A stretch of DNA of 64,000 nucleotides from Nemertoderma westbladi. Taxonomy: Eukaryota > Animalia > Xenacoelomorpha. The position numbers and the translations under genes are program-made. The notes beneath the pieces are model-generated. The model did no database searches, was not told the DNA's origin, and worked only from the letters and a program-made list of their open reading frames with translations. Of this stretch, positions 1-60,267 are shown piece after piece (the stretch's first letter is position 1; each line of letters begins with the position of its first letter). The stretch is from contig JAUCBJ010003424.1 of NCBI GenBank assembly GCA_032718475.1, positions 55,353 to 119,352 of the forward strand, given 5' to 3'.

Positions 1-1
1 A

Positions 2-1338
2 TTAGTAAAAGACGTGTGTCAACGATTCCCACAGGTAACTCATATGTTTGCACCGGTTACGACTAAGGAACCTGTTTCGATTGCGGGTAGTAGTGATATT
101 TCTCCTATCCATGGTGCGACGGAACACAGGTTTGTTATTCCGGACGAGTTTATACCGCCAAGAGCAACGTCGTCGCCCATTCCGAAAGTCAAGGTAAGTA
201 ACCCACCGATTACGGATCGTAGTAGTTTATTGACCGGACCTGCGCTACTGACGACAAAACAGGTGAGTCCACCGTCGACACCTAAACCCGTTACACACTA
301 CGCTTACCCAATGACGTTTCGACCAACAAGGCCTTTGGATTCAAATGCTGTCATTCGCCCACCGAACCAGTTTACATCGCAATCTACGACTTCGAGGAAG
401 ACTTGTGAGCCTACCGAACAACGGAGAACAGTGGAGACGCGACCATTCAACCATTTTACATCGCAATCTACGACTTCGAGGAAGACTTGTGAGCCTACCG
501 AACAACGGAGAACAGTGGAGACGCGACCATTCAACCAGTTTACATCGCAATCTACGACTTCGAGGAAGACTTGTGAGCCTACCGAACAACGGAGAACAGT
601 GGAGACGCGACCATTCAACCATTTTACATCGCAATCTACGACTTCGAGGAAGACTTGTGAGCCTACCGAACAACGGAGAACAGTGGAGACGCGACCATTC
701 AACCAGTTTACATCGCAATCTACGACTTCGAGGAAGACTTGTGAGCCTACCGAACAACGGAGAACAGTGGACGATGTTCCGAAACGAAATGTTAGAATTC
801 GTACGACGCAACGGACGCGAGCACGTCGACCACCATATCCGGATGATAGTAGTACTTCGAGCGAATCGGATTACCCGAAACGCGAATGAATATAAACGCG
901 AGCGTTCAGACAACTCCTTTGCAGATAATCCTCCACAGAATACACCAACACAGAAGGCGTTACAACCAACGGACGCAATTAGTACACAACAGTTCGCCGA
1001 CATTCTGCGACCAGTTGTCAATAAGTTGGCTCAGATCGAGGAACGTCTGGAGGAAGGTTACACCGACAGTTCGAGAAATTCCGAATTCGAACACAATAGA
1101 CACCCGAAGGGACCACAAAGACCGGTACCTTCAAACCCCACATCGTATCAGGGAAAAGCGCCAAGAAGGGAGAACATCAACCAGACTACCAACCAAGGAC
1201 GCGAAACTCTGAACGTTGCCGAGGAGATAGCGAAATTCGCAGCCAGACAGGGATTGCCCTGTACAACAACCACCGAAGTTCTCCGGTAGCTCAAAACACT
1301 GGCATACCTTCGTAGACTATATCGAATCCCAGATCGCC
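2..1338 (+). pseudogene. gag: 5' part of BEL/Pao gag, broken by two frameshifts
   Basis: Frame of ORF 14..889 is open from the window edge and P/S/T-rich. It shifts at ~885 (cgcGAATgaatat) into the 345..1289 frame, then at ~1257-1259 (ttgCCCtgta) into the 1339 frame, which reads PVQQPPKFSGSSKHWHTF...EKFNYL, a typical BEL gag (DUF1759-like) start. Confidence 0.7.
365..770 (+). repeat. 84-bp tandem repeat, ~5 copies, inside gag
   Basis: Units start at 365, 449, 533, 617 and 701 and encode N(Q/H)FTSQSTTSRKTCEPTEQRRTVETRPF. Confidence 0.97.
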
Positions 1339-4300
1339 GTGTGCGCCTTTACATCACGGGAGAAGTTCAATTACCTGCTCCAAACGTTGTCAGGAGAACC
1401 TAAACGTTTGGCGGAGACTTTCGTCGGTGTACCGGACGCTTTCGAACTAGCGTACGATCGTTTGACTTCGATATACGGAGGTACAGTGAGCATGGCCAGG
1501 TCAGTAATAGAGGAACTCTGTAAGGGAGGGGCTATCACTAAACCCGTCGACTTACTAAAACTAGCTGACGAGATCAAGAACGCTATCACTACCTTAAGAT
1601 CAATTGGACAACTTGATTACGGGAATACCCCTACAGTCCTATTAAAGATAATAGGACGACTCCACCATCGACTTCGTCGGGAGTGGAGGAAGGTCGAATA
1701 CCAGCGAGAGGAGCGAGGAGGATTCCTAAAATTAGAAGATGTGTACCTTTTAATATCCAGGGAGGCGGTAGTAGAAACTCGATCTAACTACACCGACCAG
1801 CACATCGTGGCAGAAGGGATCACATTGCCATCCTCCAACCGACAAAAACCCCAGACAACATCCACTAAGACGGCCACTTACACCACACCGACGGAATTAC
1901 GACAATTCTCGGACGGTAGTAGGGTATCTGCGCCCATTGGGACAAAACAGACGAGACAGCAACTCAGCACCGACTTCAACAGCTACCAATACTGCGAGCA
2001 TCCAGGTAAGCGGTATATTGGTCACAAGTTACGAGGTTGTCGACAATTTCGCGAGTTGAACTCGGAAGAACGACGGCTGCAAATACGGCCACTGGACTCT
2101 TGTTGGCGATGTACGCGACACGGACACGTGCGCAAGGATTGCCCAAATACCGACACTTGTCCATCCTGTGGACGCAACCATGACGGTCTGCTCCACACAG
2201 ACAGCCACACGCCGACGAAACGCTTCGCCAGGGAACACCCGGAAGCAGCAGCGAGATGTGATGCGGCTTACCGAAAACGAGAATCGAAAACGACTCCAAC
2301 CTTCGTGACCCATATTGAGGATTGCTTCTCAGAACAATCCGGATCGTCGGACGAAGAATCAGAAGACGACGACGAATATTCCAATGGAGACGAACAACCG
2401 TCGATCGCGCTCCTGACTACTGATCAACTGAAGGGATTCAGTGTAATCCCGATTAAGGTTACTGGCACAAAGGGGAGCAAGAGGATCTATGCGATTCTAG
2501 ATTCAGCCTCATCCCATAGCTACGTGGACGAAAAGATAGCTGACGTCGTGACGGATCTAAAACAAGGTAAGCACGTCAGTTATACAGTAAGTAGTATGCA
2601 CGGACAGCGTGCAATACCAGTGACACGAGTTAAGTTGGACTTAGACTCTCTTCTTCCAAAATCGCAGCACAGCGAGAGGGAGAGGTCTTTGTTGCCCTTT
2701 AGAGATCTAACCTTTGCGGCCACGAAGGACTTTAGTAACCTACTAGGTCCAGTGCCGGAACAATCTCTAGAGGACCGTAAGTATTTCAGACACCTTGGTG
2801 TACCCGAATGTCCTGTCAATTATAGATCGGTAGCAATGCTGATCGGGACGGACCAATTCAACCTACATCAGGTGTGGGAAACCAGACCATCGGCAGTTGT
2901 AGCGGGAAACGCATACGCCTGCAGAACGCCGATAGGGTGGTATACTCGAGCGCCTGTGCGCACACTAGACGTAAGTGACGAGGAAGACGATGTACAGAGT
3001 ACATGTAGTTTATTAACTACAAATTCGATTCATTCCTTTTCACACGACGTGAACCATACTACACTACAGTCGACAAAACACGACAGACGTGTAACTAGTA
3101 TGATAAGTCACAAGGAGCAGCTAACCCACAAGGTGAGTTTAGAACTTGGGGAGAAGACGAGTCAGCTGGAGATTCCATCGACGACAGATGATAGGCTTGC
3201 GAGTCTACCTACCCCAATAACCTCAACAGTGCCAGTCGATATCGATGATGACGCGTTGAGAAATCATCAGTTGGAACAAGCCGCCTTGGACAAGGAATTA
3301 ACGGAGAAGACTATCAGGTGGTTAGAACAAGATACAGCTGAACCTGGTAGCTACGAACCTTGTATGTCGGAACAGGAGAAACAATCTCTGAAGATCATGG
3401 AAGATACTATCCGCCAGACGAAAGACGGACATTATGAGGTAGGTATGTTATGGCGTAGCCAAAGTCCTAAACTTATAAACAACTACCCACTGGCTTTAAG
3501 ACGTCTACACTCAATACGGCAACGTCTATTAAAGGACGAGAAAGCCCATCTGCAGTACAACACTCAGATGGAGACGTATTTGACGAAGGGATACGCTATC
3601 CGAATGACTAACCCGGAGCGAGTGACCGACCAAACGTATTACTTGCCACATCACTACGTGAGACACCCCGACAAACCAGACAAAGTACGTGTAGTCAATG
3701 ACTGTGCGGCTCTGTTTGAGGGAATGTCCCTCAATAGTGAGTTGATGGATGGACCGAACATGAATAATTATCTTATGGGGGTGATTATGCGCTTCCGTCA
3801 GCGTCAAGTAGCCTTTACTTGCGACGTTGAAGCGATGTTTCACCAAGTAAAAGCGTTAGAGCGAGACAGAGACAGTTTGTGGTTCCTCTGGTACCCGGAA
3901 GGAGATTTAAGTCTACCACCGGCGACTTACCAAATGCAAGTTCGCGTTTTCGGTGCCAGAGACAGCCCAAATTGTACGATGTACGCCCTAAAGCAGGCCG
4001 CTAGGGATCAGAAACATCTATATGACCCAGAGATAATTAGAATTGTGGAGCGTGACTTTTACGTTGATGACGGATTACAGAGTTGCGACACAGTAGAACG
4101 TGCTACAACAGTAGCACATCAATTACGGGACTGCTTGGCGGGCGGAGGTTTTAACCTCACCAAATTCGCCTCAAACAGTGCCGAATTAGTAGACTCATTC
4201 GGAACTACTGAGCGTGGAGGTGGTGACATAGACCTAGAGTTCGAACCACTACCGACGACTAAGGTGTTGGGGCTCTTTTGGGACCCAAACACAGACAACT

Positions 4301-7300
4301 TTCGAGTGAAAGTGAGACTGGACAGTCAAGAGAACACACTGACCAAGAGATCATGCTTGTCAAAATTGAGCCGATTGTTCGATCCGTTAGGATTCATCAG
4401 TCCAGTGATACTGCAAGCCCGCATTTATATGCGCAGTATATGGAAGGATGGACTAACATGGGACGAGCCGATTTCATCAGACCAAGTGGACTTATGGAAG
4501 ACCTGGGAGGCGGAATTATCTTCGCTAGAGGATTATTTCATACCCAGGGTTTACTTTCCATTACAAAGTACATTTCCTGACAACTTGGAACTACACTGTT
4601 TTTCTGACGCCAGTGACAACGGTTTTGGTGTGGCAGCGTACCTGCGCAGACAAGTAGAATCAGACGAGTTCGATGTTTCGCTCATTACTTCTAAGGCTAA
4701 GACCATGCCTACTAAGTATATGACGACACCACGAGCCGAGCTACAAGCCGCAACCCTGTCAACCACCATCGTGAACCTCATACAGACAGAACTACAGTCG
4801 AGTTTACAGATATTTTATTGGACTGACGCGACGTTGGTTTTATTTTACATAAACAACGACACACTCGAATTCAAGACATTCGTTGCTAACCGTCGCGCGG
4901 AAATTCTAGACCGTTCAATAAAAGAGGATTGGCGACATTGTCCCGGACCACAAAACCCAGCTGATATTGCGTCGCGAGGAATGATGCCTCAGGAATTCTG
5001 TAAACCGGAGAACAAAGAATTTTGGCAACACGGACCCCAGTTCTTACAGAAATCGACACAAGATTGGCCTCCGTTATACGACAACAAGTCCAACACCATT
5101 CCTAAGGACGCCGAAATCAAGAAACCAAAAAAGGGGAAGACAAAGAAAAAGACAACGGCGGCAAAACTCAAGAAAAAACCGAAGGCGAAATGGAAAGATA
5201 TAACTTCAAAGGTCAAGAGAGGAAGACTTGCGAGCCTTTCTACACCAGACATATCGCCAGACGGTCAAACAGACACGTTACTAGACGGTCAACCAGACAT
5301 TTTGCCAGACATATCACAAAATGTTCCACCAGACGCTAGTAACACACTGACAAACAGTAAAGCCGCAGTTTCCCTATTGGAGCGGCCTTCTATTGACAAA
5401 CAACCAGATACGTTACCAGACGTATCGCCAGACACATTACTAGACAGTCGACCAGACATTAGTAATGTATTGACAAACAGTAAAGCCGCAGTTTCTCTAT
5501 TGGAGCGGCCTTGTATTGACAAACTACCAATTTTGACACACTTGAGCAACCATAAGCACGGTGAAACCTCATGTATTACAGATGTGGGTAGTACCTACGC
5601 TAATGTAAATACAGGTGTTACTTTGCGCTCAAGAGACATACCGAACTTGCAACCTATGGTGAAACCTGGGATTAATATCGGCAGAAAAATTAGTTTACCG
5701 AAACCCACTGATCCCATAGAGTTCAAACCACCATTAACGATCGACTTACAAAGTACCGACAATCAAGGTAAGAAGACAAAGAAGGACAAATTACTTGTAG
5801 ACCCGGACGGATCAACAGTCAACAAGGGAATACCTACCGGCGGACCCGTGGGCCCTTCTAGTAATTCAAAACCTTCCAAATTCGCAATTGACTTACCTGA
5901 TGACGTCACAAATACTCATGTCGACCGTATTGTAAACTTAACAGATTCTTGGACAAGCGCTTGCCGAAAATTAGCGTGGATTGTACGTTTTGTACAATAC
6001 GTTAAAGGCAAACGCGACTTTACGCGTCGACTTACATTGACTGAGATTGACAGTTGTGAGATTAAATTAATTCGCCATTACCAACTGCGATATTTCGCGC
6101 GCGAATTCACATCTATAAATCAAGGTCAACCAATCAAGTCGTCACCAATACTGAGTTGGAGTCCGATAATTTATAATGGCTTAATTTGTCATAAATCTCG
6201 GCTTCAAAACATTGACTTTAACACGAACTTTAGGTACCCAATAATAATACCGCAACACCACGAACTACAACGTGCAATGATACTGGACGCACATCTACAT
6301 CTGAAACACGCTGGAAGACACCACTGTCTTTCCTACTTACGTACTAGATTTGTATTAATTAGACCCAGTAAAGCATTAAGTTCAGTGACACGTACGTGTA
6401 TTATTTGTAAAAAGGTACATTCTAGAATAGGTACCCAAGAAATGAGTGAACTACCACAAGCACGACTTCAAGCATTCAGACCACCTTTTACAGAGACTGG
6501 AATTGATTGCTTTGGTCCCATACATACGAAACGTGGACGTATACTAGTAAAACGCTGGGGACTGATTTTCACATGTATGTCCAGTAGGGCAGTTCATATT
6601 GAACGTGTGATGGATCTTTCCACCAACGCGTTTATACTAGCACTGCGGCGATTTATCGCTAGACGCGGACTAGTGAAATGCTTGTACTCAGACCAAGGGA
6701 CAAACTTTGTTGGTGCTCGGAATGAGATTGCTAGAGCCTTTAAGAAATTAGATCATGATCAAATCTCGAACGAACTGCAACCTCACAAGATTGTTTGGAA
6801 GTTTAATCCTCCAGATAGTCCTTGGAGAGGCGGAGTCTGGGAGAGATTGATTAGATCTATCAAAACGGCCATGGCAAAGGTCATTCCAGTAAACCACATA
6901 TTAACAGACGACCAACTGACAACATTGTTTGTTGAAATCGAGGCAATACTAAATACTAGACCAATAGTATTAGTACCCGATGACAAACAATCTCAGTTTG
7001 CTTTGACACCGGCACACCTGCTTATGCAGGCACCGACAACTTTGACACCTATTTCTATTCCAATAGAAAGCGACAGTTACGGTAGAAAAGCGTGGAAAAT
7101 CACGCAACTACTAGCTACCAAATTCTGGGAAATATGGCAAAACCATTATTTGCCCTCTATTTCTGCCAGAACAAACTGGTACAATAACACCCGCGCATTA
7201 AAGCCGGGAGATCACGTGCTGTTAGCGGAAGTGAATCTAAAAAGACGCTTCTGGATAACAGGTGTAATTTTAGCCACACATCCATCTATGGATGGAGTGA

Positions 7301-7428
7301 CAAGAACTGTGACAGTACGGACAATTGACGGTCGTACAGTAGACAGACCGACTCAACGTCTCGTACTTCTTGAAGAGACTCGTAACGAGTCTGGAGACTA
7401 CAAATCTCCACCTAATACTAGTAAATAA
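1339..7428 (+). CDS. pol: BEL/Pao gag-pol polyprotein (gag C-terminus, Cys/His knuckles, aspartic protease, RT, RNase H, integrase)
   Basis: CWRCTRHGHVRKDC and CPSCGRNHDGLLH; protease AILDSAS; RT YLPHH, DVEAMFHQV, FGARDSP, FYVDD; RNase H LHCFSDAS, PRAELQAA, WTDA, NPADIASRG; integrase HLKHAG/CIIC, GIDCFGP, SDQGTNF, PWRGGVWERLIRS. The true start is upstream of 1339. Confidence 0.97.
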   Translation: MCAFTSREKFNYLLQTLSGEPKRLAETFVGVPDAFELAYDRLTSIYGGTVSMARSVIEELCKGGAITKPVDLLKLADEIKNAITTLRSIGQLDYGNTPTVLLKIIGRLHHRLRREWRKVEYQREERGGFLKLEDVYLLISREAVVETRSNYTDQHIVAEGITLPSSNRQKPQTTSTKTATYTTPTELRQFSDGSRVSAPIGTKQTRQQLSTDFNSYQYCEHPGKRYIGHKLRGCRQFRELNSEERRLQIRPLDSCWRCTRHGHVRKDCPNTDTCPSCGRNHDGLLHTDSHTPTKRFAREHPEAAARCDAAYRKRESKTTPTFVTHIEDCFSEQSGSSDEESEDDDEYSNGDEQPSIALLTTDQLKGFSVIPIKVTGTKGSKRIYAILDSASSHSYVDEKIADVVTDLKQGKHVSYTVSSMHGQRAIPVTRVKLDLDSLLPKSQHSERERSLLPFRDLTFAATKDFSNLLGPVPEQSLEDRKYFRHLGVPECPVNYRSVAMLIGTDQFNLHQVWETRPSAVVAGNAYACRTPIGWYTRAPVRTLDVSDEEDDVQSTCSLLTTNSIHSFSHDVNHTTLQSTKHDRRVTSMISHKEQLTHKVSLELGEKTSQLEIPSTTDDRLASLPTPITSTVPVDIDDDALRNHQLEQAALDKELTEKTIRWLEQDTAEPGSYEPCMSEQEKQSLKIMEDTIRQTKDGHYEVGMLWRSQSPKLINNYPLALRRLHSIRQRLLKDEKAHLQYNTQMETYLTKGYAIRMTNPERVTDQTYYLPHHYVRHPDKPDKVRVVNDCAALFEGMSLNSELMDGPNMNNYLMGVIMRFRQRQVAFTCDVEAMFHQVKALERDRDSLWFLWYPEGDLSLPPATYQMQVRVFGARDSPNCTMYALKQAARDQKHLYDPEIIRIVERDFYVDDGLQSCDTVERATTVAHQLRDCLAGGGFNLTKFASNSAELVDSFGTTERGGGDIDLEFEPLPTTKVLGLFWDPNTDNFRVKVRLDSQENTLTKRSCLSKLSRLFDPLGFISPVILQARIYMRSIWKDGLTWDEPISSDQVDLWKTWEAELSSLEDYFIPRVYFPLQSTFPDNLELHCFSDASDNGFGVAAYLRRQVESDEFDVSLITSKAKTMPTKYMTTPRAELQAATLSTTIVNLIQTELQSSLQIFYWTDATLVLFYINNDTLEFKTFVANRRAEILDRSIKEDWRHCPGPQNPADIASRGMMPQEFCKPENKEFWQHGPQFLQKSTQDWPPLYDNKSNTIPKDAEIKKPKKGKTKKKTTAAKLKKKPKAKWKDITSKVKRGRLASLSTPDISPDGQTDTLLDGQPDILPDISQNVPPDASNTLTNSKAAVSLLERPSIDKQPDTLPDVSPDTLLDSRPDISNVLTNSKAAVSLLERPCIDKLPILTHLSNHKHGETSCITDVGSTYANVNTGVTLRSRDIPNLQPMVKPGINIGRKISLPKPTDPIEFKPPLTIDLQSTDNQGKKTKKDKLLVDPDGSTVNKGIPTGGPVGPSSNSKPSKFAIDLPDDVTNTHVDRIVNLTDSWTSACRKLAWIVRFVQYVKGKRDFTRRLTLTEIDSCEIKLIRHYQLRYFAREFTSINQGQPIKSSPILSWSPIIYNGLICHKSRLQNIDFNTNFRYPIIIPQHHELQRAMILDAHLHLKHAGRHHCLSYLRTRFVLIRPSKALSSVTRTCIICKKVHSRIGTQEMSELPQARLQAFRPPFTETGIDCFGPIHTKRGRILVKRWGLIFTCMSSRAVHIERVMDLSTNAFILALRRFIARRGLVKCLYSDQGTNFVGARNEIARAFKKLDHDQISNELQPHKIVWKFNPPDSPWRGGVWERLIRSIKTAMAKVIPVNHILTDDQLTTLFVEIEAILNTRPIVLVPDDKQSQFALTPAHLLMQAPTTLTPISIPIESDSYGRKAWKITQLLATKFWEIWQNHYLPSISARTNWYNNTRALKPGDHVLLAEVNLKRRFWITGVILATHPSMDGVTRTVTVRTIDGRTVDRPTQRLVLLEETRNESGDYKSPPNTSK

Positions 7429-8083
7429 TTAGGAGTTTACAAATAGATTTCCACGTACCTGTACACCGTAGTAAGGACAGCGGTAGAATTCCATTGTCTT
7501 TATATGTGAACATTGAGGGTAGTACCCTTATGTGTCACATAGGAGCGGGATTTGTAGGTATAAGAAATGGAATTCTACTTGGAACTCACAATATTGAGAC
7601 ATTTTCGAAATTTTAGACAATCCATTTGGATTTGAAAATTTTAAAATTTTCTCCAGTGAATAGATTTCAGGGTACAGTCGGGTGGAACTTAAAATTAGAG
7701 AAACAAGAGAGGAAGACTTGCGAGCCTTTCTTAAAATTTTAATTAAATTTTACACGGTCTTGTTTCAATAAGTTACGTCAAAATAGACTCCCCTATATTT
7801 ATTACTAATTCTTGATTGCTTATTTTCTGATAATAGTTTGGGATCAAAAGGTGAGTATTTTAGACTCACGGCCAGTTTAGCCCAAATTCGTTTTACTTCG
7901 GCAAAAAATTTTAGATAAGAAGCAGCGTGTCATTAAAGAAACCCTAGATCTTAGGCTATGGGTAGGAGGTTAGAGCGTTGTCGAGCCCAAAGGGCAGACG
8001 AAACTCTCACGTCTCCTCACAACTAACTACAAACTCTGTTGTATTCCCTCTAGTAGTAATGATTATGTAACTACACCCTAATT

Positions 8084-11000
8084 ATGGAGAAAGGGATACA
8101 AGGAGAGCCGAGATGGGGATATGATATCCAAGAAGAGGCAGCAGCGCCATTCGAAAGATTTGGAGCCAAGGATTACACTATATTTGGTATAAAAGAATTA
8201 TCGGAAAGTACAGCGAAACTCGCGAGAACTAAATATGACTCGAATGTATTAAAGAGAAGGCAAAACGCATTAAACGAAAGAATCGAAAGTTTGCGCCAAA
8301 CCTTCAACGAACTTTACCCGTACGATGCTTTGTGTGATACGGGAGACATTAGCGAAGACCCCGATACTGAAATTAGTCGTTTGTATCATACCATGCAATA
8401 CCTAAAGGCGCACGAACCTATGCCCGCGGTACGCGATGAATTCGATGGAATGCATCTTTACAGACGAACTCGAGGGGACGATAGAGAAACCAAGGAAGCA
8501 TTTTCAGTTTATAAACTTTATTATCAATGCGGTTCTTGTATGCGCGAACAACGAAATGCGATTCCGATGCGTTTGAATAAGGAAAATCCCGAACCGATAT
8601 TGGCGAGGTGTTCGAATCATCAACAACTACGCTACCAGGAAGGAGGGTATCCTTTATCGAATCCATATCATTCATTTGCTATGACCGGACCAAAGGCGGG
8701 AGAAACTGTCATTTACCCACCTAAGGTTGTTGAACCCGATGTATTTGAACTTACGCTGGACGAGGCGAATCAGTCAACCCGCGAAAAGAAAGAAGCTCTT
8801 AGCCTATACAGAGCCTACAAGGCTTTCGAGAAAGGTGAGATGGAAGAATGGGGTGGAAGACTCGCGAGCCTACCTTGCCATTGGACGTCACACGATCAAA
8901 CTTCAGCTAAGGAGATGACACCGGAAGTTTTCGAGAGCATAAACTTTGCTCAAAACGTTATTCAGAGATTACAGATTGCATCCCCGGAGAGGCCAAGAGA
9001 AATGCAACCGTATAGTACTTCAACTATGAAACCATTGAGTACGACACTCAATTTCCCTATTAGTATACCAGTCCGACAGGATACGACGTACGAAATACCC
9101 ATCGTGGATCATCCAGAAATCATTTCAAACTTGGAGTTTCTTCCTGCAGTTGTTTTCAGCGATATGAGTAAGATATATGATTTACGTAGACATATTACTC
9201 AAAAGGTCGTGAACAACGTTCCACCTCATATTCAAGATTTCAAGGAACTGGATAGAGCTGGTGCCGACATAGCTCCAAGTAATCTGAAAGGATATCTAAC
9301 CAAGACGATTCGTTTATGGATTGGAACCGGAACCTTCGAGTCGGATACAGATATTGCCGCAGATTGGCGAGGTAAGGTTATTCGTTTCGATGAGGATAAG
9401 GATATAGAGAAGATTTGGCAACCTTCGGAAGAATTGTTGGATGAATGGACTAGGACGTTTAGATCGTTTCAGGAAAACGGTTATATGTTTTACGATAACG
9501 AGGGCGGCAGTCATCAGCAGAGTTTGACTTCTAAGACTATACAGATTAGAGCGGCGGACGGAGTCCTGCACGTTTTCAGTAGACAGAGGAGCGACAAACG
9601 AATGCCGATACCTCCAGCGAATACAAAGCGACACCATCTTATCACCGATATAGTAAAGAAGATGGACCAAGCTTGTAATATTGACGCTAGAATGTTACCG
9701 AAGATGGTAAGAAACATGATTTTAGATAAAACTGTTGTAAAGGTTGGATCAGGAGTAAGGGAGGATTTAATTAGCGACTTCGCCGGCATGACGGACAGCG
9801 ATGACCGACTACCGACACCATACGTCGACACTCGACCTCTTATTCTGTGGTCTATAGAACAGGGATATTTTCGTGAGTATAATACTCAGAAGACTGGAAC
9901 TGGATACATTTCCTACCTGCTATTCAATTGGGATTATAAGGAAGGTAAAAGGAACAAGTATATTGAAACTTATGGAGAAGGTGATACTCCAGATATGAGT
10001 GAGTTTGAATCACAGCTTAAATGGAGAGGATGCGTGTATTGGGCTATTACGTCACCTCCAAGAGCGGTCTTACAATATTATTTAGCGATAGAGTCGTCAG
10101 TGAATGTTTGCCTAATCGCCGACATTGTGTCTCGGACTCTCAAAAGACATCCACTTTGTCTCGGAGAAGATCATACGTTCTACATGGAAGGGAGAATTCG
10201 TACCGACGTGTTTAGACGATTCCTTGAACCCTTCTACAACTCCGACGCTCAGTGTAATGCCTTTACTCGAGCAGGATTTAGTATATTTCGAGACGTGTAT
10301 CTTCGCTGTGCGGGATCTCTTATCGAAAGACCATCTATGTTTACATTGTTACCCTATGAAGGAGAACGTATCGTGGAGATTACGGATGAATCACGGCAGA
10401 CGCGCGCGCCTATCGGTCACCTTGGTGATGAATTCGAAGTAACTACTACGATCGCCGACGATCCTTTAGAGGAACTTCTTGAGATAGAAAGGAACCTCCC
10501 GAAGAAATCTCAGACGGAGATTCGACAACTTGAAGCAACAGATGCTATAGTTTGTATACAACCTTCAGAGACCTACCAACCCATAGACCCAGATGATTAC
10601 GATTATAGTATGGGAGGAAGCGCTCGACCGATTGGAGATCTTATATACGAACGAGTGTGGTACCCTGCTAATACGATGTGTAGTAAATGTGGCGTCGCTG
10701 GACATCATATGGCAAAGTGCAGTGGAAAGCACATTACTACGACTCAGCTAATCTGTGGATGGTGTGGGGATCAAGGGTCTCATACCTTTTATACTTGCTG
10801 GAGATTTATGGCTCAATGTACTTACTGCAATATAAAGGGACATCGAGCATCTGAATGCCAACTAAGAGACATACCTTATGAACACGAATCTGTAAAACTC
10901 GTGAGGAAATTATTTGATGAGTGGGAAGATTTAGCCGACGAACATGTATCGGCACAGAGAAGACGGTTTCCGATGAGAGCGCATCTCGGATTTTGGGCGG

Positions 11001-11809
11001 TAAACCCTCAGACGATGATGTCGGAAGGATATATCTCCGCTATGCCCCAATATGACGAACTTATCGAGGTTGTTGATATTTTGCCCCACGACAGCGGATT
11101 CCGAGTGGTGCGCGAGTATCTGTTACAAATTCACCCGGATAACAAAAACACATGGAATTTTCAGAAAGTCGTTAATCGGATTACGTATGGTGAATTCGAT
11201 CGTTTCCGAACTGAAAAGCGGAACAAGGGAGCTTGGTTAACCGTCGCATGGGCGTACCGAGCTGCGTTTTACCACAAACGTATACGAGCAAGCGTATTCG
11301 AGGAAGAGGAGGTCCTAGAGGCGACGAATATACCAGCCACTCCGGTTGCGCCGTCTGCACGTCACCCTCGGGAGGACGGGCAGGGTAGGATCATACGGGT
11401 CCAGAAGGTGGGCCAACAATTGAAGAAAATTATTAATGTAGAAGAACGCAAGGGAGTTGAGCCGACTATTCGAGTTACTCGGGATACGGTATCACTTCCA
11501 AGAGAACCGGTAGGAGGATCGGGACATACACCAGCTGATCAACAGGGGGCGCAAGCTACTCTTGGGTCTGCGTCGTCCACTTCTCGCGCGTTCCCAGACG
11601 TTCTACCAACTGTAGTGACGACTGATCGGTCACGAGGAATCGGTCGAGGTTTTGGGATGCCAAATAGACGAATTTGCGAGGAAATAGTCGCACCGTCTCT
11701 CAACGTCCCAAGTAAACCAGTGACTCGCCCCACAAGTCCCATATCGCGAGCAAAGTCACCTGTGCGCAGTTTTCGAGGACGCGGCAGGGCTCGATCCACT
11801 AAGCGATAA
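8084..11809 (+). CDS. ORF2 of the BEL/Pao element: putative DEDDy (RNase D/WRN-like) 3'-5' exonuclease plus three CCHC zinc knuckles
   Basis: Intact 1241 aa. ExoI-like FYDNEG (9488-9505), TIQIRA, LPKMVRNMILDKTVVKVGSGVREDL (ExoII-like D at 9764), YVDT, and W...LQYYLAIE (ExoIII-like, 10076-10093). Knuckles CSKCGVAGHHMAKC, CGWCGDQGSHTFYTC and CTYCNIKGHRASEC (10679-10860). No obvious signal peptide or TM anchor. Confidence 0.75.
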   Translation: MEKGIQGEPRWGYDIQEEAAAPFERFGAKDYTIFGIKELSESTAKLARTKYDSNVLKRRQNALNERIESLRQTFNELYPYDALCDTGDISEDPDTEISRLYHTMQYLKAHEPMPAVRDEFDGMHLYRRTRGDDRETKEAFSVYKLYYQCGSCMREQRNAIPMRLNKENPEPILARCSNHQQLRYQEGGYPLSNPYHSFAMTGPKAGETVIYPPKVVEPDVFELTLDEANQSTREKKEALSLYRAYKAFEKGEMEEWGGRLASLPCHWTSHDQTSAKEMTPEVFESINFAQNVIQRLQIASPERPREMQPYSTSTMKPLSTTLNFPISIPVRQDTTYEIPIVDHPEIISNLEFLPAVVFSDMSKIYDLRRHITQKVVNNVPPHIQDFKELDRAGADIAPSNLKGYLTKTIRLWIGTGTFESDTDIAADWRGKVIRFDEDKDIEKIWQPSEELLDEWTRTFRSFQENGYMFYDNEGGSHQQSLTSKTIQIRAADGVLHVFSRQRSDKRMPIPPANTKRHHLITDIVKKMDQACNIDARMLPKMVRNMILDKTVVKVGSGVREDLISDFAGMTDSDDRLPTPYVDTRPLILWSIEQGYFREYNTQKTGTGYISYLLFNWDYKEGKRNKYIETYGEGDTPDMSEFESQLKWRGCVYWAITSPPRAVLQYYLAIESSVNVCLIADIVSRTLKRHPLCLGEDHTFYMEGRIRTDVFRRFLEPFYNSDAQCNAFTRAGFSIFRDVYLRCAGSLIERPSMFTLLPYEGERIVEITDESRQTRAPIGHLGDEFEVTTTIADDPLEELLEIERNLPKKSQTEIRQLEATDAIVCIQPSETYQPIDPDDYDYSMGGSARPIGDLIYERVWYPANTMCSKCGVAGHHMAKCSGKHITTTQLICGWCGDQGSHTFYTCWRFMAQCTYCNIKGHRASECQLRDIPYEHESVKLVRKLFDEWEDLADEHVSAQRRRFPMRAHLGFWAVNPQTMMSEGYISAMPQYDELIEVVDILPHDSGFRVVREYLLQIHPDNKNTWNFQKVVNRITYGEFDRFRTEKRNKGAWLTVAWAYRAAFYHKRIRASVFEEEEVLEATNIPATPVAPSARHPREDGQGRIIRVQKVGQQLKKIINVEERKGVEPTIRVTRDTVSLPREPVGGSGHTPADQQGAQATLGSASSTSRAFPDVLPTVVTTDRSRGIGRGFGMPNRRICEEIVAPSLNVPSKPVTRPTSPISRAKSPVRSFRGRGRARSTKR

Positions 11810-11879
11810 AAGGGAGGGCAAGGGTGGACGGAAGACTCGTGGGCCTTTCTTATGATTTGTGATTTATTTTGAATTATAT

Positions 11880-12340
11880 GTTTTATATTTAGAAAATTTA
11901 GTAAAACTTATATTTATATTTGTGTTTATTCCGAACTTATGCAATTTGTATTGTTCCGAATTTATGAAATTTAGAAATAAGAACTTATATTTTGTAAACT
12001 TATATTTAGTAAAACTTATATTTTATATTTGTGATTATTCCGAACTTATGCAATTTATATTATTCCGAACTTATGCAATTTATATTGTTCCGAATATTAT
12101 GCAATCTATATTTTATAAGCAAAAGTTTTATAGTTAGAAAGTTTTGTGCTTAGAAAGACTCATATTTGTAATTATTCCAAACTTATGCAATCTACATTTA
12201 GGTACGAAAGTATTTGTAATTACTTGAATTTATGCAATATTTGAGATGCAATAGTAGATGGAAGACTCGCGAGCCTTTCTTATTGTTTTCATTTATTTGT
12301 ATTTGTAATTGTTTGAATTTATGCAATATTGAGATGCAAT
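11880..12340 (+). repeat. AT-rich 3' UTR with degenerate short direct repeats (TTCCGAACTTATGCAAT)
   Basis: Motif recurs about 8 times, e.g. near 11930, 12038, 12063 and 12176. Confidence 0.7.
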
Positions 12341-12574
12341 AGATTTATATTGGTGAATTTAATTTAGATTTATATTGTACTTACTTAGTAAAGCCTTAAA
12401 TACGTAAAGTTTGAATTTGTAATTATTTTGTATCGAATCATTATGTAGAAAGGAAGTATTGTTCGAAATTTAATTGTAAATATGTAAGTACGCCCTAAGT
12501 ATTCTATAGTTTGATTGATTATTGGTGAAAACCGTATATTTTATGCACGATAATATCCTGTTTTCATGGAGCGG

Positions 12575-13258
12575 TATAGAATTATATTCCCTAAATGCCG
12601 TGGATTTTCAAAATTTTATTTTATTCGAATTAACTTTGTAAAGATTGCTTTGAGTTCTCATTCGTATTGGTTCTATCTATTGTGCACCTATCGGTCAAGT
12701 GGTTCAGTAGCTCAGTCGGTAGAGCGTTGGAAATTATATGTGTAGTAGGTATCGAGTTCGAATCCTAGTAAGTGCGAATTATTTTTTGTGCAGAATTTCA
12801 ACTCATTTAAATTAACCGCTACAAATTAATTGCATTTGTCTGTACCAATGAGACTGTAGTTATTTGATTGTAACCAATGTCGTGCAAGTTATATATTAGC
12901 TGGACCAATAGCTATCTTTAAAACCTTGTTAGAACCCATAGAACAATCGAGAATTTTCTCGATTGATTGCGGCACAAATTTGGTATATAAAGGTGCGATT
13001 CGTTCATTAGTTATCAATCACATTCTATCTATCATTCAATCAATCTCTCTGTCGTGCTTAGTTTATTCTCAGATTACATTGTATTATAATTGTGTCTTCT
13101 GTAATAAAGTCAGAATATTCTCTCAGCTTTTCTATCTGTTTTACTATGAATTCACTACGGTGAACAAACTCAGGGACAGGATGGCCGGCTAGAGATCGGG
13201 CCGCAGCAATGAACGGGAACATCACGGGAATGTAGACGAGAGACAACCCGCAATACCA
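12575..13258 (+). repeat. Putative 3' LTR of the BEL/Pao element
   Basis: PPT-like GGAGCGG at 12568-12574; three CCAAT boxes (~12845, 12874, 12905); TATATAAA at 12984; Inr-like TTAGTT at ~13007; AATAAA at 13103. A canonical TG...CA boundary is not clearly seen. Confidence 0.5.
12701..12776 (+). promoter_or_regulatory. tRNA-like sequence / Pol III internal promoter (A box and B box)
   Basis: TAGCTCAGTCGGTAGAGC (D arm/A box, from 12708) and GAGTTCGAATCC (B box, 12754-12765). Anticodon and acceptor stems do not pair well, so it is not a functional tRNA. Confidence 0.7.
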
Positions 13259-14463
13259 TTTAGAGTTATTCGCCCATCGCCTGAAAGGTTAGACAGCGTT
13301 CGATCCTTGCTACCTAAGTATAAGACCAAAAGATCAAAAGGTAGACGTAGTGACACGCTGTAAGCCCAAAATTACATCATAGGGACTGTACTGTCTTGAT
13401 TCAGGAAAACCCACAGTAGACCTTCACTTTCCTACGGGGGGGGAGGGAGAGAGAGCAGATACTAGTACGCAGATAGGACGTAGGCACACCGGTACAAGGC
13501 ATACACATTGGTTAGGGTGCAGCAAACTGTACGCTTAACTCTTGCTAAGTACAGGTGTGTGTGCGACTATTTGCAGTACGACAGTGTCCATTACATCAGA
13601 ACTTGTAGGCTAGGGGGGTTGCTGTGTTTTCACCTGAATTGGGATTGTACCGTTCAGGCGGTAGGGCAGTTTACGCTAGGCGCAAATAAATTGAGGCTAT
13701 CAGGGATACTAACATCTACCGTGTCCCCGCCAACGCCCTAATAGGAAGTTACCCGGACTACCTGGGTGACTAAAATTCTAGATAGGAGCCAGGATAGCTA
13801 TACGTACGGGTACCCGTACGCCTACAGTAGTAAACTAACACATCTCTTCTTAGTATCAGGGACCTGGTACCTAAAATTGCCGAATTCTGGGCGTAGTATT
13901 AACCTTATGCCTGAATTTGAGTCCTGGAAATACGCAAGAGGGGAAGGAACCTTATCATTCGTGAGTATTGGACCTACAAGTTACAAAATTAGAATATTCG
14001 TAAATGCACACCGTACCCAGTAATTATATATGTGAAGGAGCAAAACTGTTTTGACCGTTCAGAATTAACACACGCGCGTTAGAAATTATTTACACCTCGA
14101 AATATATAAAATTAACTTTGTCCGTACTGTGCTTTGCCCGCTAGTTAGACATCTCCAAATCTCTGCCTGTACCTAGCTAGCGTCTCTTTGCCCAACCATA
14201 TAAATCACACCGCGGCAAAGTATACGAGCCCCTTAGTCCGTCAGTGAGTCAGCCTGATTTTAGGATTCGCTGCGCGGGATTTGTTTTATCGAAGTTTGTC
14301 TGCTCGTAGACTGTTTTCTGCCTCACCGGTTATAAGAGATCGATACTGCAATATATTCGTTTACTTAGAGTTTACTGTTTTGGTGAGAAGGTCGGATTTA
14401 TGATTTGATTTACAAACTTTACAGTAGGATATTGCAGGTATTGTTACCGTCTCTTCCAATATA

Positions 14464-17400
14464 GAGACTATCAAATCAAATAAATCGACATATTCTCACT
14501 AGGACTACCTCGACACAATCCTCTACATGGATACCATCAAATCAAATAAATCGCCATATTCTCACTAGGACTACCTCGACACAATCCTCTACATGGAGAC
14601 TATCAAATCAAATAAATCGACATATTCTCACTAGGACTACCTCGATACAATCCTCTACATGAGACTATCAAATCAAATAAATCGACATATTCTCACTAGG
14701 ACTACCTCGACACAATCCTCTACATGGAGACTATCAAATCAAATAAATCGACATATTCTCACTAGGACTACCTCGACACAATCTACATGGAGACTATCAA
14801 ATTAAATAAATCGACATATTCTCCCTAGGACTACCTCGACACAATCCTCTACATGGAGACTATCAAATAAAATAAATCGACATATTCTCACTAGGACTAC
14901 CTCGACACAATCCTCTACATGGAGACTATCAAATCAAATAAATCGACATATTCTCACTAGGACTACCTCGACACAATCCTCTACATAGAGACTATCAAAT
15001 CAAAGAAATCGACATATTCTCACTAGGACTACCTCGACACAATCCTCTACATGGAGACTATCAAATCAAATAAATCGACATATTCTCACTAGGACTACCT
15101 CGACACAATCCTCCACATGGAGACTATCAAATCAAATAAATCGACATATTCTCACTAGGACTACCTCGACACAATCTACATGGAGACTATCAAATCAAAT
15201 AAATCGACATATTCTCCCTAGGACTACCTCGACACAATCCTCTACATGGAGACTATCAAATAAAATAAATCGACATATTCTCACTAGGACTACCTCGACA
15301 CAATCCTCCACATGGAGACTATCAAATAAAATAAATCGACATATTCTCACTAGGACTACCTCGACACAATCCTCCACATGGAGACTATCAAATCAAATAA
15401 ATCGACATATTCTCACTAGGACTACCTCGACACAATCCTCCACATGGAGACTATCAAATCAAATAAATCGACATATTCTCACTAGGACTATATCGACACA
15501 ATCTACATGGAGACTATCAAATCAAATAAATCGACATATTCTCCCTAGGACTACCTCGACACAATCCTCTACATGGAGACTATCAAATAAAATAAATCGA
15601 CATATTCTCACTAGGACTACCTCGACACAATCCTCTACATGGAGACTATCAAATCAAATAAATCGACATATTCTCACTAGGACTACCTCGACACAATCCT
15701 CTACATAGAGACTATCAAATCAAAGAAATCGACATATTCTCACTAGGACTACCTCGACACAATCCTCTACATGGAGACTATCAAATCAAATAAATCGACA
15801 TATTCTCACTAGGACTACCTCGACACAATCCTCTACATGGAGACTATCAAATCAAATAAATCGACATATTCTCCCTAGGACTACCTCGACACAATCCTCT
15901 ACATGGAGACTATCAAATAAAATAAATCGACATATTCTCACTAGGACTACCTCGACACAATCCTCTACATGGAGACTATCAAATCAAATAAATCGACATA
16001 TTCTCACTAGGACTACCTCGACACAATCCTCTACATAGAGACTATCAAATCAAAGAAATCGACATATTCTCACTAGGACTACCTCGACACAATCCTCTAC
16101 ATGGAGACTATCAAATCAAATAAATCGACATATTCTCACTAGGACTACCTCGACACAATCCTCCACATGGAGACTATCAAATCAAATAAATCGACATATT
16201 CTCACTAGGACTACCTCGACACAATCCTCTACATGGAGACTATCAAATCAAAGAAATCGACATATTCTCACTAGGACTACCTCGACACAATCCTCTACAT
16301 GGAGACTATCAAATCAATTAAATCGACATATTCTCACTAGGACTACCTCGACACAATCCTCTACATAGAGACTATCAAATCAAATAAATCGACATATTCT
16401 CACTAGGACTACCTCGACACAATCCTCTACATGGATACCATCAAATCAAATAAATCGACATATTCTCACTAGGACTACCTCGACACAATCCTCTACATGG
16501 AGACTATCAACTCAAATAAATCGACATATTCTCACTAGGGCTACCTCGACACAATCCTCTACATGGAGACTATCAACTCAAAAAAATCGACATATTCTCA
16601 CTAGGACTACCTCGAAGCAATCCTCTACATATGAGACTATCAAATCAAATAAATCGATATATTCTCACTAGGACTACCTCGACACGATCCTCTACATGGA
16701 GACTATCGAATCAAAGAAATCGACATATTCTCACTAGGACTACCTCGATACAATCCTCTACATGAGACTATCAAATAAAATAAATCGAAATATTCTCACT
16801 AGGACTACCTCGACACAATCCTCTACATGGAGACTATCAAATAAAATAAATCGACACATTCTCACTAGGACTACCTCGACACAATCCTATACATGGAGAC
16901 TATCAAATCAAATAAATCGACACATTCTCACTAGGACTACCTCGACACAATCCTATACATGGAGACTATCAAATCAATTAAATCGACATATTCTCACTAG
17001 GACTACCTAGACACGATCCTCTACATGGAGACTATCAAATCAAATAAATCGACATATTCTCACTAGGACTACCTCGACACAATCCTCTACATGGAGACTA
17101 TCAAATCAAATAAATCGACATATTCTCACTAGGACTACCTCGACACAATCCTCTACATGGAGACTATCAACTCCAATAAATCGACATATTCTCACTAGGG
17201 CTACCTCGACACAATCCTCTACATGGAGACTATCAACTCAAAGAAATCGACCTATTCTCACTAGGACTACCTCGAAGCAATCCTCTACATATGAGACTAT
17301 CAAATCAAATAAATCGATATATTCTCACTAGGACTACCTCGACACGATCCTCTACATGGAGACTATCAAATCAAAGAAATCGACATATTCTCACTAGGAC

Positions 17401-19830
17401 TACCTCGATACAATCCTCTACATGAGACTATCAAATAAAATAAATCGACATATTCTCACTAGGACTACCTCGACACAATCCTCTACATGGAGACTATCAA
17501 ATAAAATAAATCGACACATTCTCACTAGGACTACCTCGACACAATCCTATACATGGAGACTATCAAATCAAATAAATCGACACATTCTCACTAGGACTAC
17601 CTCGACACAATCCTATACATGGAGACTATCAAATCAAATAAATCGACACATTCTCACTAGGACTACCTCGACACAATCTACATGGAGACTATCAAATCAA
17701 AGAAATCGACATATTCTCACTAGGACTACCTCGACACGATCCTCTACATGGAGACTATCAAATCAAATAAATCGACATATTCTCACTAGGACTACCTCGA
17801 CACAATCCTCTACATGGAGACTATCAAATAAAATAAATCGACACATTCTCACTAGGACTACCTCGACACAATCCTATACATGGAGACTATCAAATCAAAT
17901 AAATCGACACATTCTCACTAGGACTACCTCGACACAATCTACATGGAGACTATCAAATCAAAGAAATCGACATATTCTCACTAGGACTACCTCGACACGA
18001 TCCTCTACATGGAGACTATCAAATCAAATAAATCGACATATTCTCACTAGGACTACCTCGACACAATCCTCTACATGGAGACTATCAAATAAAATAAATC
18101 GACACATTCTCACTAGGACTACCTCGACACAATCCTATACATGGAGACTATCAAATCAAATAAATCGACACATTCTCACTAGGACTACCTCGACACAATC
18201 CTCTACATAGAGACTATCAAATCAATTAAATCGACATATTCTCACTAGGACTACCTAGACACGATCCTCTACATGGAGACTATCAAATCAAATAAATCGA
18301 CACATTCTCACTAGGACTACCTCGACACAATCTACATGGAGACTATCAAATCAAAGAAATCGACATATTCTCACTAGGACTACCTCGACACAATCCTCTA
18401 CATGGAGACTATCAAATCAATTAAAACGATATATTCTCACTAGGACTACCTCGACACGATCCTCTACATGGAGACTATCAAATCAAATAAATCGACATAT
18501 TCTCACTAGGACTACCTCGACACAATCCTCTACATGGAGACTATCAAATCAAATAAATCGATATATTCTCACTAGGACTACCTCGACACGATCCTCTACA
18601 TGGAGACTATCAAATCAAAGAAATCGACACATTCTCACTAGGACTACCTCGACACAATCCTCTACATAGAGACTATCAAATCAATTAAATCGACATATTC
18701 TCACTAGGACTACCTAGACACGATCCTCTACATGGAGACTATCAAATCAAATAAATCGACACATTCTCACTAGGACTACCTCGACACAATCTACATGGAG
18801 ACTATCAAATCAAAGAAATCGACATATTCTCACTAGGACTACCTCGACACAATCCTCTACATGGAGACTATCAAATCAATTAAATCGATATATTCTCACT
18901 AGGACTACCTCGACACGATCCTCTACATGGAGACTATCAAATCAAATAAATCGACATATTCTCACTAGGACTACCTCGACACAATCCTCTACATGGAGAC
19001 TATCAAATCAAATAAATCGATATATTCTCACTAGGACTATCTCGACACGATCCTCTACATGGAGACTATCAAATCAAAGAAATCGACACATTCTCACTAG
19101 GACTACCTCGATACAATCCTCTACATGAGACTATCAAATAAAATAAATCGACATATTCTCACTAGGACTACCTCGACACAATCCTCTACATGGAGACTAT
19201 CAAATCAAATAAATCGACATATTCTCACTAGGACTACCTCGACACAATCCTCTACATGGAGACTATCAAATCAAAGAAATCGACACATTCTCACTAGGAC
19301 TACCTCGATACAATCCTCTACATGAGACTATCAAATAAAATAAATCGACATATTCTCACTAGGACTACCTCGACACAATCCTCTACATGGAGACTATCAA
19401 ATCAAAGAAATCGACATATTCTCACTAGGACTACCTCGACACAATCCTCTACATGGAGACTATCAAATCAAATAAATCGACATATTCTCACTAGGACTAC
19501 CTCGACACGATCCTCTACATGGAGACTATCAAATCAAAGAAATCGACACATTCTCACTAGGACAACCTCGACACGATCCTCTACATGGAGACTATCAAAT
19601 CAAAGAAATCGACACATTCTCACTAGGACTACCTCGATACAATCCTCTACATGAGACTATCAAATAATATAAATCGACATATTCTCACTAGGACTACCTC
19701 GACACAATCCTCTACATGGAGACTATCAAATCAAAGAAATCGACATATTCTCACTAGGACTACCTCGACACAATCCTCTACATGGAGACTATCAACTCAA
19801 ATAAATCGACATATTCTCACTAGGACTACC
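14464..19830. repeat. 66-bp tandem satellite, ~80 copies
   Basis: Unit ATGGAGACTATCAAATCAAATAAATCGACATATTCTCACTAGGACTACCTCGACACAATCCTCTAC, with occasional 63-, 65- and 67-bp variants. Confidence 0.98.
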
Positions 19831-58337: not shown

Positions 58338-60267
58338 TTATTCTGATTCGTAGTCTGAACTTGAATCATTTGTGGACATTATTTTGATTTTTTGTTTAGC
58401 CTCTTTAGCTGCTAAACGCTGAGGTCGTTCCATTGTTTTGATATCAGTCGGGGAAGCAGCTGGTTTAGGTGTAACATTCGCCGCTGTTATTTCACTCTCT
58501 TTAGCCGTAATTTCTAAAGGGTATAATCGTTTAACTGGTCTGGTTGTCCGCCCTTTATTGGTTCTAATGGTAACGTAACGAGTCTGGCCGTCGTTTCCAG
58601 GATGAAGTTCTAGAACCTTGGCTAATCTCCACTGTAGTCGAGGGGTGTGTTTGCTTCCTTCCACAAGAACAATGTCACCCTCTTTTACTTGGGGTCCCTT
58701 TTTCTCGTTCCATCTATGCTGTTCACGTAATGCCAATAAATACTCGGCAGACCAACGATTTCTGAAATCCCGCAATATCTTCTGTAAACGGTTTAGACGA
58801 TCGTTTATATTGGAGGTATTAATATAATCAGGATCCAAAAGATCGCCAATATCTGGATTACTGTCCGGAATATCAGTTAACCTATAACCACATAGTAATT
58901 GAGATGGTGTAATTGGTAGTAGGTCTTTGATATCGGAAGATACATAGGTTAGAGGTCTGTCATTGAGTATCGCCTCAACCCCTATAAGAAACGTTCTGAG
59001 TTCGCTAATAGTAAGTAACGCCTTTCCAATTACGCGTTTTATTGTAAGTTTTGTACAACGAATCATCCTTTCCCACATACCGCCCATCCAAGGGCTGGCC
59101 TTAGGAATAAGATCCCATTTTAACCGCTTTTCCAGCAGGTAGTCGCGAACCATAGGATCTTGTTGAATATTTAGTAGAATTTGTCTGGAAGAAGTGAAGG
59201 TGGTTGAATTATCACTTATTAGAATGGATGGGTAACCTCTTCTTCCAACAAAGGAACGGAAGGCTAAAAGAAATTCCAATGTTGAATTATCGAGAACCAA
59301 TTCAAGATGAATAGCTCTGGAAACAGTGCATGTAAATAGGGCAATATAAACCTTGAATACTTCTCCATTTTGTTTTGCTGCTAAACTTCCTGTATAATCA
59401 ACACCTACAGCTGAGAAAGGACGTTGAAATTGGACTCTGTAGTTAGGAAGTGGAGGAGGTAATGGAGACGCGTAAGGTTTACCTTGAATCCTAAGGCATT
59501 GTTCACATTTGCGAATCATAATTTTCACGCGTTGTCTACTAGATGGTATCCACCATCTTTGTCGAAGATATGCAACAGTACTAGACGTACCCTCATGACC
59601 ATTCCTACTGTGAGCATCTCGGATAATAAGATCTGTAAGATAGTGTTTCTTCGGTAATAATATGGGCTGCTTGGAATTCCAATCCAAATCAGCATTGGAT
59701 AATCTCCCATTGCTCTTTATAATATCGTCACTTAGAAATAACTGTAACTGTCTTACAAGATTTGGAGTGTTAAATTTCTTTTTGCTCAACAAAAATTCGA
59801 TTTCCTCCCCAAAACTTTCCCGCTGAACTTTATCGAATCCACCAATGCTCAGCTGTTTTGATGTCTTTCACTAACAAATATGGCTTCTGTTTGGTAATTC
59901 TCGTATCAGAATTACTATGCATAAGAATGCTGCCAACTTGTTGATGTTTTAATAAAATACTTTTTCGAATGTTGTCGATGTATTTCAAAATCCATGCAGT
60001 TACCTTCAACAGACGACTGTAACTGCTAAATAATTCCAAATTTATTGCTACTGGTTCAACTTCCGGAGGGTTAGAAGATTCTCCAACTCCGCATACTACA
60101 TCAACATCATTGTCCATAGTCTTGCATTGGAGAGACAACACCTTCTGTTGTGGCCAACTGGAATGATTTATTAACCATGGCGGACCGTGCCACCACTGGT
60201 CAGAAGATAACAAATTGTTAGCTGTAGTCCCCCTTGAAATAAGATCAGCTGGATAGAGGCTGGATAG
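58338..60267 (-). pseudogene. pol: 3' pol fragment (RNase H end plus integrase) of a second, distinct BEL/Pao family
   Basis: PADLISRG, WWHGPPWL, HxxNGH/CEQC, GVDYTG, SDNSTTF and SPWMGGMWERMIR. A 1-nt frameshift lies at ~59832 and the element is 5' truncated at ~60267. Confidence 0.93.

Follow-up and report, generated by a model that had tools for sequence, protein, structure and literature searches.

The subject of this analysis is a stretch of 64,000 nucleotides from Nemertoderma westbladi (assembly GCA_032718475.1, contig JAUCBJ010003424.1, positions 55,353 to 119,352 of the forward strand), called here the window, which opens within a retrotransposon of the BEL/Pao group. The third open reading frame of this element (ORF3) is read as an intact accessory gene of a multicopy element, placed between pol and the likely 3′ long terminal repeat (LTR), and its product, a predicted exonuclease joined to three zinc knuckles, may trim intermediates of the host small RNAs and weaken silencing. 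A probability of about 0.35-0.4 is attached to this reading as a whole. The concept of an exonuclease as cargo is already known; the BEL/Pao host, the fusion with knuckles, and the protein family appear to be undescribed in the sources searched.

A preliminary description, made from the letters of this DNA alone, had proposed an intact frame of 1241 amino acids between pol and a putative 3′ LTR, a cargo other than env, the motif order of RNase D/WRN-type exonucleases followed by three CCHC knuckles, and a shared 21-bp motif tying the gene to the element. All four proposals hold, and the order of the motifs can be followed residue by residue. The frame is open from 8084 to 11809, upstream of a candidate LTR at 12460-13166, and the probability that it would be open by chance is ~4e-24. 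Is this an env gene? That identity was rejected, as ORF3 lacks a transmembrane anchor (the best 19-residue hydrophobic mean is 1.38) as well as a furin site and has a single sequon. The first 430 residues matched no recognised family in the family searches, the C-terminal tail, from about residue 1076, is basic and rich in Pro and Ser, and the window holds no homologue of ORF3 elsewhere.

Relatives of the protein are few and distant. An exhaustive search of 1.84 billion representative proteins, with residues 331-1060 of ORF3 as the query, gave five matches, P0001-P0005. Two of them (P0001 and P0004) were dropped because their similarity is confined to the knuckles. The other three (P0002, P0003, and P0005) are metagenomic proteins from the ENA, all singletons and 24-29% identical to ORF3, and they align across the exonuclease motifs, the acidic linker, the knuckle triplet, and another block that is conserved. 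A profile made of these three alone scores ORF3 at 60.9 bits over the exonuclease and at 39.2 bits over the knuckles and the module that follows them, against a best of 2.9 for 501 shuffled or reversed sequences, the relatives themselves having been chosen for their similarity to ORF3. Judged by these alignments, the protein family is apparently conserved. In ORF3 an acidic linker of ~160 residues separates the exonuclease domain from the knuckles, whose spacings are CX2CX4HX4C (residue 866), CX2CX5HX4C (891), and CX2CX4HX4C (912). The closest language-model match of P0002 is a euglenozoan cluster combining PF01612 with zf-CCHC (0.87), which is a lead only. Neither ORF3 nor its relatives gave a match in locus searches of viral contigs, metagenome contigs, or prokaryote genomes.

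The exonuclease motifs themselves were confirmed. They are YDNEG at 470-474, TIQIRA at 485, MLPKMV..MILDKTVVKVGSGVREDL at 537-562, YVDTR (580), LKWRG (645), and YYLAIE (665-670). Both the DxE of Exo I and the Asp of Exo II that mark DEDDy nucleases are present, with D471, E473, and D561 aligning to EXD2; these three acids and Y666 are kept in all four sequences, ORF3 and its three relatives, at pairwise identities of 23-29%. The last acid is Glu (E670), as the preliminary description had noticed, and by its motifs the domain is DEDDy-like, not canonical DEDDy. Among the relatives, two of the three have Asp at this place (YxxxD) and one, P0003, has Glu (YxxxE). This distribution makes a lineage trait the probable explanation of Glu; the family, so far as these four sequences represent it, includes canonical YxxxD members, and Glu recurs within it. 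The earlier suspicion that Glu is a mark of decay is not supported, because one distant relative out of three shares it and because the plant enzyme RICE1, a metal-independent RNase of DnaQ fold, is described as active with Glu in the last position (PMC5451212). With Glu as the last acid, catalytic activity of ORF3 seems reasonably likely.

Which fold do these motifs belong to? With a profile of the exonuclease part of ORF3 and its relatives, human EXD2 comes first in the PDB (E 4.4e-4, Exo I and Exo II aligned), and the matches after it are unrelated (E>=0.038). With a longer family profile the knuckles of Air2 and Lin28 come first; EXD2 appears at 0.012, WRN at 0.04, and the RNase D of Trypanosoma brucei (TbRND) at 0.006-0.019, over the knuckles only (PDB 7c42, E 0.019). 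In a wide structural search with an AlphaFold model whose predicted local distance difference test (pLDDT) score is 46, all 50 matches listed are, by title, DnaQ-type nucleases or polymerases carrying one. The WRN exonuclease heads them (Z 6.6, root-mean-square deviation 5.2, 135 residues aligned), RICE2/At5g06450, RNase D, and Nibbler are near the top, and Exd1 and Egalitarian are also among the matches. By ESM features, ORF3 matches a PF01612 cluster at 0.93, ranked behind three unnamed clusters. Although none of these lines is decisive singly, profile, structural, and ESM evidence agree, which makes the assignment fairly firm: residues ~430-700 very probably adopt a DnaQ fold. The DnaQ-like, WRN-type domain foreseen from the letters is thus supported. 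Rrp6, listed there among the host enzymes of this class, is not supported as the nearest host type, as it ranks below EXD2, WRN, and Nibbler. A fold predicted from the single sequence was set aside (pLDDT 30), a search of a viral structure library returned nothing significant, and ORF3 alone found no relative in the PDB or in a word-seeded protein search.

Another question is what ties ORF3 to the element. The shared motif is commoner than had been claimed: ten copies of 21 nt (GGAAGACTYGYGRGCCTW core; at most four mismatches), all on the plus strand, lie between 396 and 12280, spread over gag, pol, the spacer, ORF3 (once), and the 3′ region. Five of them sit in an 84-bp tandem repeat at 365-771 in the gag region. 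None occurs in the remaining 51.5 kb of the window, in 30 shuffles, or in viral contigs, and in translation pol, ORF3, and one of the two gag frames all read the motif in a common frame, as GRL[AV]SL. A hairpin in it is unproven: z is below -1.8 in two of the six copies folded, and the covariation is equalled by 75 of 500 shuffles.

Public sequencing runs point the same way. ORF3 is found, whole or in part, in five of the nine runs listed, four of which hold two-thirds or more of its words; these runs come from one organism and three studies and, with no RNA run among those listed, have no bearing on expression. When four runs were mapped to positions 1-15000, cover was continuous from gag to the LTR. 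In the two deep runs depth is 20-56 thousand over ORF3 and 31-91 thousand over gag-pol, values of the same order that give no copy number. ORF3 is multicopy by its depth and by its diverged pieces (85-90% identity), in three DNA runs. A deep contig over 10006-10260 spans the E670 codon and shows one difference, at an unstated place. Of 601 variable places 40 are shown, and five of these, outside the two ORFs, were excluded; synonymous changes make up 4/4 in ORF3 and 22/31 in pol, against ~0.33 expected for random transitions (ORF3, p ~0.01), and this points weakly to purifying selection on ORF3. None of the four ORF3 places shown falls in a catalytic codon. The runs also contain deletions with joints at 8223-10256 (two runs) and 8243-10368 (one run), which remove the exonuclease and shift the frame; these two forms indicate that derivatives of the element family lacking ORF3 exist. 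Taken together, ORF3 very probably belongs to the element.

The element itself can be placed. Its gag-pol ORF holds Gag's C-terminal portion with Cys-His motifs, a protease, a reverse transcriptase (RT; YVDD), an RNase H, an integrase (DDE), and DUF5641, and Pfam reports Peptidase_A17 (E 6e-42), DUF5641, and DUF1759 over 1339-7428. The order protease-RT-RNase H-integrase, together with these Pao-type domains, is that of BEL/Pao elements (Belpaoviridae). Since the best 120 relatives listed for the RT-RNase H part all belong to PF05380 at 30-44% identity, the element is, on its sequence, a BEL/Pao member without a close described relative; among the 120, the named sequences belong to sea urchins, a mussel, fishes, cnidarians, a sea cucumber, and a spider. 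A search with pol gave no usable locus. Between RNase H and integrase (~5060-5900), Pol carries a Lys-rich, low-complexity insertion of roughly 250 residues with internal 24-bp and 123-bp repeats.

As the window opens within gag, the 5′ LTR lies outside it, and so does the target-site duplication; one LTR candidate, on the 3′ side, was counted. It contains a TATA box (TATATAAA) at 12984 and AATAAA at 13103, its read depth is high, and GC content rises from ~30% to ~48% just beyond it. An alternative LTR of 2 kb, ending at 14461 (TATTG...CAATA), was set aside, as several contigs run past 14461 with the same letters. This shared sequence fits a separate repeat cut by a satellite, and 12460-13166 is favoured for its TG...CA ends, TATA box, AATAAA, and GC step, although the read data leave the choice between ends at 13166 and 14461 unsettled. 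Tests for a tandem copy or a self-priming site after the candidate found none (85-179 of 200 shuffles pair equally well), and there is no primer site 3′ of it. Within the candidate, at 12700-12780, lies a piece resembling a transfer RNA, in which the A box (12708) and the B box (12756) of an RNA polymerase III promoter are both clean; ARAGORN and Rfam do not call it, it folds poorly (z -0.8), and it could be the head of a short interspersed element or an LTR-borne polymerase III promoter.

How would such a protein be made, and on what would it act? A branch site, a pyrimidine tract, and an AG precede the ORF3 start by 31-61 nt and suggest a spliced message of the kind used for env. On the mechanism favoured here, the protein would be produced from this message, a spliced subgenomic RNA, its knuckles would grip single-stranded RNA, and its exonuclease would shorten that RNA from the 3′ end. 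It would work in trans, with host small-RNA intermediates as the likeliest targets, and their trimming would weaken the silencing of the element. Beyond the fold, all of these steps are what we infer. The picture of a knuckle-guided 3′-5′ exoribonuclease draws on TbRND, which has the same design, and on RICE1, which works with Glu. By analogy, RNA is likely to be the substrate, rather than DNA; spliced subgenomic expression with action in trans is somewhat favoured. Host small RNAs are placed first as the point of action, the element's own intermediates second, and a dead decoy third. Two details of the 5′ side may be added: a donor-like AG/GTGAG at 7849 and, downstream of it, the acceptor at 8053 could delimit a small intron in the 5′ untranslated region, and two short upstream ATGs (8059 and 8065) precede the ORF3 start, with possible translational control.

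A number of points weigh against this reading. At the level of the domain, Exo III reads YLAIE in place of YxxxD, and RICE1 is a weak precedent because it is atypical and metal-independent. ORF3 alone matches nothing in Pfam beyond a weak zf-CCHC, so that its exonuclease goes undetected there; the AlphaFold model, built from four sequences, is poor (pLDDT 46, predicted template modelling score 0.47); Foldseek with this model gave no match at E<=0.001, with NrnC, Nibbler, and EXD2 in the top ranks; and a Z of 6.6 falls where the search tool warns of a mere common arrangement. At the level of the population, the selection signal in ORF3 comprises four sites only, and frameshifted copies deleted for the exonuclease occur in all three DNA runs. 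At the level of the target, mature PIWI-interacting RNAs (piRNAs) are methylated at their 3′ ends and held in PIWI proteins, and would be shielded. WRN also cuts DNA. The same is described for EXD2 (PMC6648332), and the DEDDy ORF3s of bdelloid elements show no clear link with copy number (PMC5408684).

A bolder version goes further: with ORF3, a family of retroelement small-RNA nucleases (exonuclease, triple knuckle, conserved module), so far undescribed and spread across animal mobile elements, would have its first identified member, which would suppress silencing by piRNAs or small interfering RNAs by destroying untrimmed or U-tailed guides, as trypanosome RNase D removes guide RNAs. This is doubtful.

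Of the other explanations, the one that survives best, though it is unlikely, is an active enzyme that serves the replication of the element by trimming the 3′ ends of its RNA, primer, or cDNA, guided by the knuckles and possibly by the 21-nt motif, ten element-specific copies of which could be protein-binding sites. Processing of 3′ ends has been proposed for the bdelloid ORF3s (PMC5408684) and action on DNA ends for Dada transposons (PMC3706591), and EXD2 is described as acting on RNA and DNA alike (PMC6648332). However, ORF3 is a separate gene outside Gag-Pol and is not known to enter the particle, replication with gag and pol alone is described for ordinary BEL/Pao elements (PMC3118150), and neither the folding nor the covariation of the motif is convincing.

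Could the nuclease instead be weak or dead, and retained in the manner of EXD1 or Maelstrom in piRNA pathways, to bind RNA as an adaptor or decoy? Both of those proteins derive from DEDD nucleases, are inactive, and still bind RNA (PMC5408684), Exd1 and Egalitarian were met among the fold matches listed, and the Asp of Exo III is replaced by Glu in both ORF3 and P0003. Against this, four very distant sequences all keep the Tyr and the remaining three acids, two relatives have YxxxD, and dead copies usually lose several acids. A decoy is, in all, rather unlikely.

It is improbable that ORF3 is no cargo at all and lies between pol and the LTR by chance, as a host retrogene or a separate insertion. 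What leaves room for this is that no contig or piece in the mapped runs joins pol to ORF3, that the 5′ end of the element lies beyond the window, and that the three relatives, on contigs of 7.5, 11.3, and 3.0 kb, may have another context. However, the motif occurs within ORF3 and on either side, three runs show high, continuous depth between gag and the LTR, terminal repeats or a second LTR do not bracket ORF3, and its GC content matches that of pol (0.454 vs 0.457). Least probable of all is a proofreading exonuclease for the element's RT: family A polymerases, which proofread with the same fold, are among the matches, but ORF3 is neither fused to nor co-translated with the RT, and its tandem knuckles point to single-stranded RNA.

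ORF3 may be compared with known systems. An exonuclease in the env slot is not new, contrary to what the preliminary description implied: in 2017, Rodriguez et al. described DEDDy ORF3s, with DEDD changed to DEED, in the Juno, Vesta, and Athena elements of bdelloids and discussed the same functions, 3′-end processing and silencing (PMC5408684); a DnaQ-type nuclease is also described for Athena/Terminon elements (PMC6431247). Compared by description, not by sequence, the Juno and Vesta proteins share with the present one an RNase D-like DEDDy domain, a separate frame after pol that replaces env, the lack of a transmembrane segment, and one changed acid. They differ in that ORF3 lies here in a BEL/Pao element, a term absent from PMC5408684, and reads DEDE (last acid), not DEED, so that it falls outside the Juno/Vesta group. 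It also has three CCHC knuckles, the conserved module, and a 430-residue N-terminal part, whereas the only such feature in the available text on the bdelloid proteins is a Cys-His-Cys motif in two Vesta ORFs (PMC5408684).

TbRND offers the closest design, a DEDD exonuclease with four CCHC fingers (PMC7797062; PDB 7c42). Its fingers are reported to supply RNA binding and strongly raise cleavage, U-rich 3′ ends are preferred, and overexpression lowers total guide RNA (PMC7797062). In both proteins tandem CCHC fingers follow the exonuclease at the C-terminal side, three here in place of four, but TbRND is a cellular kinetoplastid enzyme with a linker of ~28 residues, and ORF3 has its much longer acidic linker and extra domains. 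The likeness is probably convergent, since the fold search places 7c42 no higher than 33rd (Z 4.4). EXD2, the WRN exonuclease, and Nibbler (MUT-7), all of Pfam DNA_pol_A_exo1, are the best profile and fold matches and share the DxE of Exo I and the LP..L.D..I.KVG...ED segment; ORF3 is very remote from them (no Pfam match) and differs in its Exo III Glu and mobile-element context. To our knowledge, these host proteins carry no knuckles.

Other mobile elements differ more. The BEL/Pao elements Atlas, Cer13, and Tas also have an extra coding region after the integrase, described as a fusion glycoprotein (PMC9094657, PMC3118150), in contrast to ORF3. Dada (DEDDy) and KolobokD (DEDDh) encode DnaQ-type 3′-5′ exonucleases, but they are DNA transposons, in which DNA ends are the proposed target of the domain, and the available text reports no knuckle triplet (PMC3706591, PMC9587614). 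For BEL/Pao, the available text of two sources gives extra cargo as env only (PMC9094657, PMC3118150), that of the second without the word "exonuclease". Neither a BEL/Pao case with an exonuclease nor a knuckle-fused case was found in the literature searched; Repbase, Dfam, and GyDB lay outside that search, and a catalogue entry is possible.

What would an element gain from such a gene? Exonuclease cargo in the env slot now extends from rotifer elements to the BEL/Pao group, and its presence in both suggests repeated independent capture and, therefore, a real benefit. Where the rotifer domains are bare, ORF3 brings its own RNA-binding module, of a kind whose part in trypanosome RNase D has been worked out, and because of this module the substrate of element-encoded DEDD nucleases becomes testable with one purified fragment. 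If the small-RNA reading is true, transposons would have a counter-defence of a rare kind, an enzyme that suppresses small-RNA silencing in animals; TART-A is described as an animal case that targets the piRNA machinery via shared nxf2 sequence (PMC7785250).

Table 1. Features of the element and of ORF3, in window coordinates
Feature	Position	Strand	Remarks
5′ gag part	14..1289	+	two frames in present copy
Other copies of 21-nt motif	396, 480, 564, 648, 732, 8855, 11830, 12260	+	
gag-pol ORF	1339..7428	+	open, 2029 aa
28-nt block with motif	5214..5241	+	in pol; identical to spacer 7704-7731
Candidate splice acceptor upstream of ORF3	8023..8053	+	CTAAC branch site, pyrimidine tract, TAG; from the DNA letters
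ORF3	8084..11809	+	1241 aa, no internal stop, intronless
EXD2/WRN-type 3′-5′ exonuclease-like domain	9374..10183	+	~aa 430-700; profile, fold, and motif evidence
Predicted catalytic codons	D471 9494, E473 9500, D561 9764, Y666 10079, E670 10091	+	
Three tandem CCHC zinc knuckles	10679..10858	+	aa 866-925
Conserved module after knuckles	10900..11090	+	E-x2-AD ... R ... GF ... Y-x2-L; common to three relatives
Candidate polypurine tract	12447..12456	+	purine tract AGAAAGGAAG, after AT-rich stretch 3′ of ORF3
Candidate 3′ LTR	12460..13166	+	707 bp, TGTTC...GAACA; ends inferred, not read-mapped

The rest of the window is largely repetitive. After the LTR, 13167-14461 is a separate repeat of high depth with no long ORF, which the satellite cuts at 14461 while other copies continue with common sequence. 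A 66-bp satellite (82 copies) occupies 14464-19830, and an 18-bp satellite (1546 copies) forms a 28-kb array at 20049-48057; both contain spurious long ORFs. On the minus strand, 58338-60279 holds a fragment of a second LTR retrotransposon, with the end of RNase H and an integrase, which we take from its motifs to be BEL/Pao-like.

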